Positions 1-1,680 of a stretch of DNA of 1,680 nt are shown in pieces. Both the position numbers and the translations under genes were made by a program. The notes under the pieces are model-generated. The model had not been told where the DNA came from and searched no databases. It was given only the letters and a program-made list of their open reading frames with translations. The stretch comes from Naegleria gruberi (Eukaryota), in assembly GCA_000004985.1 (NCBI GenBank), contig GG739348.1. The stretch is one strand, 5' to 3'. How positions within the stretch are numbered: the first letter of the stretch is position 1; every line of letters begins with the position of its first letter.

Positions 1-520
1 GTAAAACAATGCTTTCATAGCTCGAGGCCCCTCCTTTTACACTAAAAAAAGAAATGACCTTCTCTGCCATCTCCTCATCCTCTATATCTTGTAAGAATCC
101 ATAGGCAAGATTGGCTTTGCATTTTACCAAAAGATCCATTACCCTCTCTCTATATGTTTCCAACCCAAATGCTTTTATCAATGAAACTAAACTCTCAGCA
201 TCCAAGTTATTGCCACTCGAGGAAACTCTCAGTAAATCTTTGGCTAGCTCGGTATTATTCAATTTAATGACATACTTGGTCACCAGGGTTTTTTTAAAAT
301 ATTTGTTTCGCAAAAACCTTGTAACAAAATCTGTAACTGTATCCAAAAGAGATGGATCTTGCTCGTACCGTGTCCACATATTTTCAAGTTCTTTCAAAGA
401 TTCTGTTTCTCCAATCTCCAGTGCCAATAAATGTTTGAAACGATTTGGACTAATTAAAATGCACGCACTGCTATACCACCTCGTTGCTCTTGCTCCTTCA
501 TTACCTGTATGTCCTTCGAA
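1..520 (-). CDS. Second exon of the same gene, continuing past the window edge. It encodes an unrecognised C-terminal region. The spliced protein reads ...AVSKSE|FEGHTGNEGARATRWYSSACILISPNRFKHLLALEIGETESLKELENMWTRYEQDPSLLDTVTDFVTRFLRNKYFKKTLVTKYVIKLNNTELAKDLLRVSSSGNNLDAESLVSLIKAFGLETYRERVMDLLVKCKANLAYGFLQDIEDEEMAEKVISFFSVKGGASSYESIVL...
   Basis: Seen: a minus-strand frame with codons 520-518, 517-515 and so on has no stop over 173 codons down to base 1. It has a balanced, protein-like composition with amphipathic, helix-like stretches. It is in phase with the upstream exon only if the 521-567 intron is removed. The supplied track missed it because it has no stop and no start inside the window. 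The plus-strand 138-aa ORF 111..527 is its antisense shadow. Confidence 0.55.
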
Positions 521-567
521 CTGTTAAAATTCTCAATAAATATATTGTTTAAACTTTTAAAACTTAC
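521..567 (-). other. Putative 47-nt phase-0 spliceosomal intron (GT...AG) of the minus-strand gene.
   Basis: Seen: the minus-strand sequence is GAG|GTAAGTTTTAAAAGTTTAAACAATATATTTATTGAGAATTTTAACAG|TTC. This gives a perfect GTAAGT donor, a T-rich tract and a CAG acceptor. Its length of 47 is not a multiple of 3. Removing it shifts from the oxygenase frame, which would otherwise hit TAA at 454-456, into a frame that is open for 173 further codons. That second frame has TAA (524-526) and TGA stops, but both lie inside the proposed intron. Donor and acceptor are both phase 0. Confidence 0.55.
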
Positions 568-1524
568 CTCGCTCTTTGAAACTGCAAGATTTTCCAATAT
601 ATTTTCTGGAATAATAATGTTTTTGGAGATTTTAAATCTTCTTTTGATTTCCTCATTTCCCTGCTCACCCACAACATGAGTGATGGCAAAACTTGGTTCT
701 GTCCAGAAATTATTATAACCACTTCCACCATCTTGTTGCTTTCTCATTATACCAAGCTTAATTCCAATACTGTTATATTTGGCATTGTATTGTTGGAGAA
801 GTTGCATTAGATTGCTATCTCTTCCTTTGAGGCAATCGTATTTCAATCCTTCTTCAGAATATTTGTGTTCCAAGAGGTAGCACAAGAATGGTGTTTCAGA
901 ATCCCAGTTTTCCACAATTGAATTCAAGTTTTCAAAATGTGCTGATCGATCTACAACTGTTGGCTTGATTCCAGAAGCATAACAAACATTATAAACTAGA
1001 CATAATCTGTATCCACTGGTCAACTTGGCCACCTTATGGTTACAATCACAATAAAAACTAAAGAAGAAAGGTTTAGATGAACCTTCTTTAGCAAACTCAT
1101 AAGTTTCCTCTGAATCAGCATGTTGAACAATAATTTCACCACCCGAATAAAGAGATGGCAACTGCACCACAAGAGTGGCAAACATTTTGTCTTCCTTTTC
1201 TGTATCTCTATGAAAATCGAAGTGTCCTCCTTCCTCATATAACAATAATTTGTACAAACTATTTCGAACAACAACACTCGAATGAATGCCAAGTCCAGGT
1301 TTCACTTGTTTCTCCACCAAATTATCTATATATTGCTTCCAATGTTGATTTGTAATTCTGAATTGTGAGGGAGACAATTGCCATGTTTTCCTCACTGTTT
1401 CATCATAAATTGTCTTATCACCCTGTCCAAAAGGAGCCTTTTCAAAATATTGAATAATTTCAAAAGCTTGATTCTTGGTAATAATTGGCAATCGGATTGG
1501 TTTATAAATCTTTGTATTAACATC
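568..1524 (-). CDS. Exon encoding a P4Hc/PHD-type 2-oxoglutarate/Fe(II)-dependent oxygenase domain. This is an internal or first-coding exon. The 5' boundary is unresolved, somewhere in 1491-1524. The 3' end is at the donor site at 568.
   Basis: Seen: an uninterrupted minus-strand frame runs from the in-frame TAA at 1527-1525 down to 568. The translation contains LYEEGGHFDFHRDTEKEDKMFATLVVQL, which fits the Y..G..F..H.D......R..T...YL strand-II pattern of prolyl-hydroxylase-like DSBH enzymes. The HRD His (H94) is the codon at 1210-1212 and the Asp (D96) is at 1204-1206. The translation also contains CDCNHKVAKLTSGYRLCLVYN, with the distal His (H152) at 1036-1038 and the 2OG-binding Arg (R162) at 1006-1008. 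The exon ends ...GCA GTT TCA AAG AGC GAG, immediately followed by GTAAGTTTT. There is no ATG between the upstream in-frame stop and the track's 'start' at 1489-1491, which is TTG. So the true N-terminus must come from an upstream exon or an acceptor inside 1492-1524. Codon usage (GGA, CCA, GAA, AAA, TTC) is coding-like. Confidence 0.7.
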
Positions 1525-1594
1525 TTAATTCCAATTATAATAATTAATTAATACTAAATTATAAATTATTTAAATATATGATTCCGTACTTTTA
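1525..1594. other. AT-rich non-coding spacer, either 5' flank or intron. It contains the 10-nt palindrome TAATTAATTA (1541-1550) and ends in a TTTTAG (1590-1595) acceptor-like motif on the plus strand.
   Basis: Seen: the segment is roughly 85% A+T. It has stops in the oxygenase frame (TAA at 1527-1525) and in the plus-strand acidic frame (TAA at 1571-1573). It has no coding-like periodicity. Confidence 0.5.
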
Positions 1595-1642
1595 GATGAT
1601 GATGATGAGGTAACTGTTGCTGCTGTCGATGATGATAATGAT
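1595..1642. repeat. Imperfect trinucleotide (GAT/ATG/TGA)n microsatellite. It has four GAT units plus GAG at 1595-1609, and a GAT GAT GAT AAT GAT cluster at 1628-1642.
   Basis: Seen directly in the sequence. It gives poly-Asp in one plus-strand frame, and poly-Ser or poly-His in the two open minus-strand frames. Confidence 0.7.
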
Positions 1643-1680
1643 GGCAATGAAGCCAAATCACAAAGTACTTCAATACCTGG
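1596..1680 (+). CDS. Possible plus-strand coding exon fragment, (D)DDDDEVTVAAVDDDNDGNEAKSQSTSIP..., following a TTTTAG acceptor and continuing off the window. The strand assignment is uncertain.
   Basis: Seen: the plus-strand frame with codons 1598-1600 and onward is open from 1574 to the window end and is preceded by TTTTAG|. It has no in-frame ATG. An ATG register starts at 1596 but terminates after 5 codons (ATG ATG ATG ATG AGG TAA). Two minus-strand frames are also open over the same low-complexity stretch, and one of them terminates with TAA at 1570-1572. So openness is not diagnostic here. Confidence 0.25.

Follow-up and report, generated by a model that had tools for sequence, protein, structure and literature searches.

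The 1,680-nucleotide stretch of Naegleria gruberi contig GG739348.1 analysed here (the window) carries on its minus strand part of a gene for a multidomain Fe(II)- and 2-oxoglutarate (2OG)-dependent oxygenase. The N-terminal ~210 residues of the encoded product are a double-stranded β-helix (DSBH) Fe(II)/2OG oxygenase of the prolyl 4-hydroxylase (P4H)/prolyl hydroxylase domain (PHD) structural type, with an intact active site. This domain stands at the head of a fixed architecture that defines a family of ~750–860-residue proteins, in which the oxygenase is followed by a middle α/β domain, a helical scaffold and a Cys-rich domain. The structural and family components of this reading are near-certain. 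In terms of function, we consider these proteins to be, with fair probability, an orphan family of protein hydroxylases whose additional module, undescribed so far, would select the substrate or provide a second site.

Assignment of the N-terminal domain draws on the following features:

979..1521, minus strand: DSBH Fe(II)/2OG oxygenase domain, residues ~32–212
1251–991, minus strand: match to PF13640 (2OG-FeII_Oxy_3), residues 122–208
1204..1212, minus strand: H135-R-D137, the proximal Fe(II) ligands (HxD); His 99% and Asp 100% conserved in 118 aligned relatives
1038–1036, minus strand: H193, the distal Fe ligand (NHKV); 100% conserved in ~119 aligned relatives
1008–1006, minus strand: R203 in GYRLCLVYN, predicted ligand of the 2OG C5-carboxylate; 99% conserved in ~119 aligned relatives

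PF13640 was matched by the window protein at 26.2 bits (E = 1.6e-5; gathering score 27) and by 48 of 53 relatives at E ≤ 0.01, several of them above 27 bits. The complete HxD...H...R arrangement was found in 155 of the 163 relatives of at least 700 residues, and the H-x9-R spacing between H193 and R203 resembles that of H374 and R383 in human PHD2. The structural statements made throughout derive from AlphaFold2 (AF2) models of P0007, a full-length homologue that is 39% identical, mapped onto the window protein. The modelled N-terminal domain has the DSBH fold, and the structures closest to it are prolyl hydroxylases. An earlier sequence-only reading of this DNA had placed HRD at residues 94–96 of the open reading frame (ORF) at 454..1491, which are H135-R-D137, and had pointed to NHKV and GYRLCLVYN; all three motifs are where it described them. 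Its view that the catalytic signature is intact is borne out by 99–100% conservation of H-x-D...H...R across ~120 relatives, which suggests that the enzyme is probably active. That reading had also named beforehand three results that would tell against it, namely a non-oxygenase fold for the N-terminal region, loss of the catalytic triad in relatives and a known domain at the C-terminal end, and none of the three was encountered.

With respect to the gene itself, the window is AT-rich (34.5% GC), and the fragment comprises three exons (1680–1590, 1523–568 and 520–1, minus strand) separated by GT..AG introns of 66 and 47 nucleotides. The spliced product is 522 residues long and open at both ends. 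Its parts are as follows:

1590..1680, minus strand: exon a, partial, the gene extending upstream beyond the window; residues 1–30 and the first base of codon 31, PGIEV... and then a Ser/Thr-rich linker
1524..1589, minus strand: intron A; 66 nucleotides, GT..AG, AT-rich, phase 1, with in-frame stops inside
568..1523, minus strand: exon b; residues 31–349, covering the oxygenase domain and the greater part of the middle domain
521..567, minus strand: intron B; 47 nucleotides, GTAAGT..AACAG, phase 0, inside the middle domain
1..520, minus strand: exon c, partial, leaving the window; residues 350–522

Once the 66-nucleotide intron A is removed, the frame of exon a runs on into exon b, giving '...SSSSKNVNTKIYKPIRLPIITKNQ', which aligns with '...SSSNERQYKPIGLPIITKEQ' of close relatives, and exon a itself aligns with 'LPGLEIA..SSS..YKPIGLPIITKEQ' of the close homologues P0002 and P0005. 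Excision of intron B, across which the frame shifts, joins ..AVSKSE to FEGHTGNEG.., and the resulting junction (SKSE followed by FEGHTGNEGARATRWY) recovers the family motif E-x-TGNEG...Y. Moreover, a related metagenomic contig (L007) has a 51-nucleotide GTAAGT..TAG intron (1910–1960) at the identical position, followed by one long exon to the stop. Both splices are thus backed by homology at the level of aligned sequences, and the splice to a second exon that had been proposed is real. The ORF at 454..1491 spans 345 codons, and its frame is open upstream as far as 1523. Open frames of 318 and 173 codons in DNA of this composition, with a best homologue at E = 5e-111, are not attributable to chance. 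The exons are free of frameshifts and stops, and every catalytic and conserved residue is intact. As to the site of intron B, it falls between the final Glu of exon b and the residues preceding TGNEG, within a β-strand of the middle domain, and this placement is kept in L007.

The same comparison bears on the public N. gruberi annotation. Residues 397–522 are identical at 124 of 126 positions to residues 1–126 of P0010, a 465-residue N. gruberi 'predicted protein' that begins at M397 of the protein encoded here (the overlap corresponds to window positions 1–379, minus strand). The P0010 gene model is truncated, the oxygenase and middle domains having been left out, and the full-length protein is expected to have 861 residues or more.

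In terms of family size and spread, a first homology search returned 152 relatives from oomycetes, diatoms, a raphidophyte, chytrids, green algae, Amoebozoa, sciarid flies, other fungi and bacteria (Leptospiraceae, Rhodospirillaceae), and the span of the family also takes in Planctomycetes and Heterolobosea. An exhaustive hidden Markov model (HMM) search, with a profile built from the non-oxygenase part only and with counts given as cluster representatives, yielded 6731 matches at an E cut-off of 1e-3, 4295 at 1e-10 and 1499 at 1e-30. Among the 150 best, almost every match starts at residue ~210–230 of a protein of 740–850 residues, and the oxygenase domain is therefore always in front. No stand-alone non-oxygenase module was found among the profile matches; the short ones are truncated gene calls whose first residues fall in the DSBH strand 'GYRLCLVYNL'. 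Pfam domains beyond these parts were absent from the longest members. Bacterial members are single uninterrupted ORFs, such as a 751-residue Leptospiraceae protein, and the parts are therefore one protein rather than merged neighbouring genes. Searches of the non-catalytic parts against Pfam, NCBIfam and PADLOC returned the generic 2OG match only. The architecture is old and widespread, and its members are already in public databases under automatic names ('Fe2OG dioxygenase domain-containing protein', 'hypothetical protein', 'YbiX'). The domain fusion that the sequence-only reading had proposed is accordingly right in that the parts are joined in one protein, but it is a fixed and widespread arrangement (the 6731 representatives include bacteria and eukaryotes) rather than a local event. 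Likewise, the single unrecognised C-terminal region of that reading is indeed unrecognised, but it consists of at least two distinct domains in the window and a third beyond it.

The first of these domains, which directly follows the oxygenase, is strongly conserved and has these features:

446..978, minus strand: middle α/β domain, residues 213–374, split by intron B
817..867, minus strand: polar residues H250, Y252, K263 and D266 (LLEHKY...LKGRD), 98–100% conserved in ~120 relatives
494..508, minus strand: T354-G-N-E-G358 loop between β4 and β5; G355, N356 and G358 invariant and the Thr nearly so (alignments A3 and A5)

The predicted order of elements in the middle domain is α1-β1-α2, a long β2-β3 hairpin, β4 and β5, with long and curved strands. 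Modelled alone from 39 sequences, the domain reached a mean predicted local distance difference test score (pLDDT) of 94.1 and a predicted template modelling score (pTM) of 0.86. Conservation of its polar cluster equals that of the iron and 2OG ligands, against a mean column identity of 16–18% for the non-catalytic region outside the cluster. A recurring Cys/aromatic pattern had earlier been singled out in this part of the protein, but it does not characterise the family; the Cys residues listed for it are conserved at only 6–74%, and the conserved positions are instead H250, Y252, K263, D266 and T354-G-N-x-G358. A Foldseek search of the PDB with the middle domain model returned no match at E ≤ 0.001 (best E 0.13, template modelling scores of 0.13–0.22), a sequence-profile search of the PDB stayed at chance level, and Pfam scans of individual members gave no recurrent match. 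The middle domain is thus, as modelled, a compact domain without a detectable relative in sequence or structure, and a candidate new fold. The possibility that this domain is a second DSBH (Ofd1_CTDD), as in Tpa1/OGFOD1, was also considered and was rejected.

Downstream of the middle domain lies the start of the helical scaffold:

2..445, minus strand: α-helical scaffold, start; residues 375–522, of ~250 residues in full-length relatives

This part is poorly conserved, and its structural matches are those of a generic α-solenoid (designed repeat proteins, the PP2A A subunit, eIF3a and AP-3). The suggestion that the second exon contributes a helical domain extending past the window holds for the bulk of exon c, but its first ~25 residues complete the middle domain, to which they contribute the TGNEG loop and the final one and a half strands. 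Beyond the window, the final ~115 residues of full-length relatives (~340–455 in P0010; also encoded in L007) form a small α-β-α-β-β-α domain with an invariant C-x-C-x2-C...F...R-x-H...K signature that could be a metal or redox site. The Cys residues of this domain are lost in oomycete and diatom members. Lone weak matches were obtained to an ArsC-related protein (E 0.007), to Grx3 (E 0.09) and to Pfam Glutaredoxin (E 0.028, in 1 of 36 members), and comparison with PDB profiles gave nothing relevant, with matches at chance level. In hhalign comparisons with Spx and Grx3, the probability was 1–3% over 14–17 columns covering the CxxC helix only, and for that reason, together with the profile searches, a thioredoxin-fold (Grx/ArsC/Spx) origin is unsupported. 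The Naegleria proteins have Lys-rich C-terminal tails (KKKLKIEE, KKLKSEH), as do 53 of 176 long members, a sequence hint of nuclear localisation in eukaryotes.

Building from these features, the enzyme would bind Fe(II), 2OG and O2 and would hydroxylate a side chain of a protein substrate, most likely a proline. The non-catalytic module formed by the middle domain, the helical scaffold and the C-terminal domain would hold or select that substrate, in parallel with the accessory domains of collagen P4H, PHD2 and OGFOD1/Tpa1, and the conserved cluster of the middle domain may be part of a substrate- or ligand-binding site. It is reasonable to infer, as the sequence-only reading had done, that an unrecognised accessory domain implies an unrecognised substrate. 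The same cluster could also be read as belonging to a bifunctional enzyme or a sensor, in which the middle domain is a second catalytic or small-ligand site and the oxygenase works in series with it or is regulated by it. This reading gains from polar residues that match the iron and 2OG ligands in conservation while their surroundings vary, from a Gly-rich loop accompanied by Lys, Asp, His and Tyr, a combination that we regard as typical of ligand or catalytic sites, and from the predicted ability of the domain to fold confidently alone. Nonetheless, neither sequence nor structure searches linked the middle domain to an enzyme or binding domain, and it was never found without the DSBH and would fit equally well as part of the oxygenase's own substrate cleft, so that we hold a second site of this kind to be possible but on balance unlikely. 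An oxygenase acting on a small molecule or nucleic acid (a free metabolite or a base), with the helical and C-terminal domains serving localisation or oligomerisation, appears less probable still.

A different concern is that the protein could be an artefact, either of two adjacent genes joined over a false intron or of a pseudogene. Such a view can appeal to P0010, which covers the C-terminal part only, and to the close relatives P0001–P0006, which have been called as proteins of ~400–430 residues ending at the intron. However, all of the parts lie within one uninterrupted ORF in bacterial relatives, the splice recovers an invariant motif in frame, and the intron position is kept in L007, whose short gene call results from reading on into the intron as far as a stop codon. 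The exons, moreover, show none of the lesions of a pseudogene. We consider an artefact of either type very improbable. Returning to the interpretation that we prefer, an orphan family of protein hydroxylases, the designation 'protein hydroxylase' is itself about evenly balanced against its rivals. Several points weigh against it. The PF13640 score of the window protein (26.2) is slightly below the gathering score (27), and the structural statements come from AF2 models of a homologue with 39% identity rather than of the window protein. No member has been characterised, and the literature on PF13640, on the automatic name and on Naegleria with P4H contained nothing on this family. Finally, five bacterial loci (one each from Leptospiraceae and Gemmataceae, and three metagenomic) have no neighbouring gene in common that could hint at a substrate.

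The wider interest of the family follows from the class of enzymes to which it belongs. Protein hydroxylases dependent on 2OG are sensors of oxygen and metabolism (HIF-PHD, Skp1-PhyA, EF-Tu-PPHD, uS12-OGFOD1), and each identification of a substrate has opened a pathway. The family described here is large, covers a broad evolutionary range, retains an intact catalytic site and has an obligate accessory module, which makes it an orphan-enzyme target with clear residues to mutate. The enzyme type is a known one; the accessory module attached to it is undescribed, and one of its domains is a candidate new fold. Its importance is limited by the lack of a pointer to a substrate or biological role, and orphan 2OG oxygenases with unrecognised extensions are not rare. 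A stronger proposal is that the middle domain is a new fold with a second functional site made up of H-x-Y, K-x-x-D and T-G-N-x-G. We think this doubtful; if it were true, the family of ~6700 clusters would be a previously unrecognised class of two-site oxygenases, possibly a hydroxylase whose reaction is linked to a further chemical step, or else a metabolite-gated hydroxylase acting as an oxygen/metabolite sensor common to bacteria and protists.

Several observations lie outside this argument. A scan of the window against Rfam gave no match, and repeats were found at chance level only. Antisense ORFs on the plus strand have no family matches; the one of 138 codons at window positions 111–527, which overlaps exon c, has a best Pfam E of 0.18 and most probably arises as a side effect of coding-strand composition. 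In a Gemmataceae contig (L003, 8722–10791), the homologue is immediately followed, on its own strand, by a gene for an SNF2-family helicase; the adjacency is probably a coincidence, because it is absent at the four other bacterial loci. Sciarid flies (Bradysia spp.; P0016, P0017, P0101 and related sequences) carry several copies of a family that is otherwise one of protists and bacteria. Its patchy occurrence among eukaryotes suggests horizontal transfer. Residues 1–30 of P0058, a Phytophthora nicotianae paralogue, lie upstream of the oxygenase domain and start MARTKQTARKSTGG..., a near copy of the N-terminal tail of histone H3. This start is unique to P0058 among 264 family sequences and could be either a gene-model artefact or a histone-tail mimic.

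Among known systems, the values listed for comparison with the oxygenase domain were as follows:

P. putida PPHD (4iw3): 14.4
Trichoplax PHD (6f0w): 14.4
Dictyostelium PhyA (6t8m): 12.7
PiuC: 12.7
Chlorella virus P4H: 11.9
Tpa1: 11.7
OGFOD1: 11.2
PHD2: 11.0

PPHD, Trichoplax PHD and PhyA are single-domain proteins of ~200–280 residues that share 14–16% identity with the oxygenase domain and lack counterparts of the middle, helical and C-terminal domains. PiuC/YbiX (NCBIfam PRK05467; PDB 9qn0) is ~225 residues long and has only a short helical C-terminal extension. Membership of PiuC/YbiX was rejected, the score being 23.7 bits against the PRK05467 equivalog cut-off of 143. In Tpa1, OGFOD1 and Ofd1, the catalytic domain is followed by a second, non-catalytic DSBH (Ofd1_CTDD), whereas none was found in that place here. 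The substrates of several of these enzymes are established, PPHD acting on EF-Tu, PhyA on Skp1, and Tpa1/OGFOD1/Ofd1 as prolyl hydroxylases on the ribosomal protein uS12. Collagen P4H α and human PHD2/EGLN1 differ in that their accessory domains (P4Ha_N with a TPR-like peptide-binding domain, and a MYND zinc finger, respectively) are N-terminal and recognisable by Pfam. In agreement with the sequence-only reading, which had seen no similarity to MYND, TPR or the P4H-α N-terminal domain, Pfam scans of the window protein and 53 relatives detected none of these and PF13640 only. What collagen P4H α and PHD2/EGLN1 offer as a likeness is the general design, that of a 2OG prolyl hydroxylase that relies on an accessory domain to select or localise its substrate.
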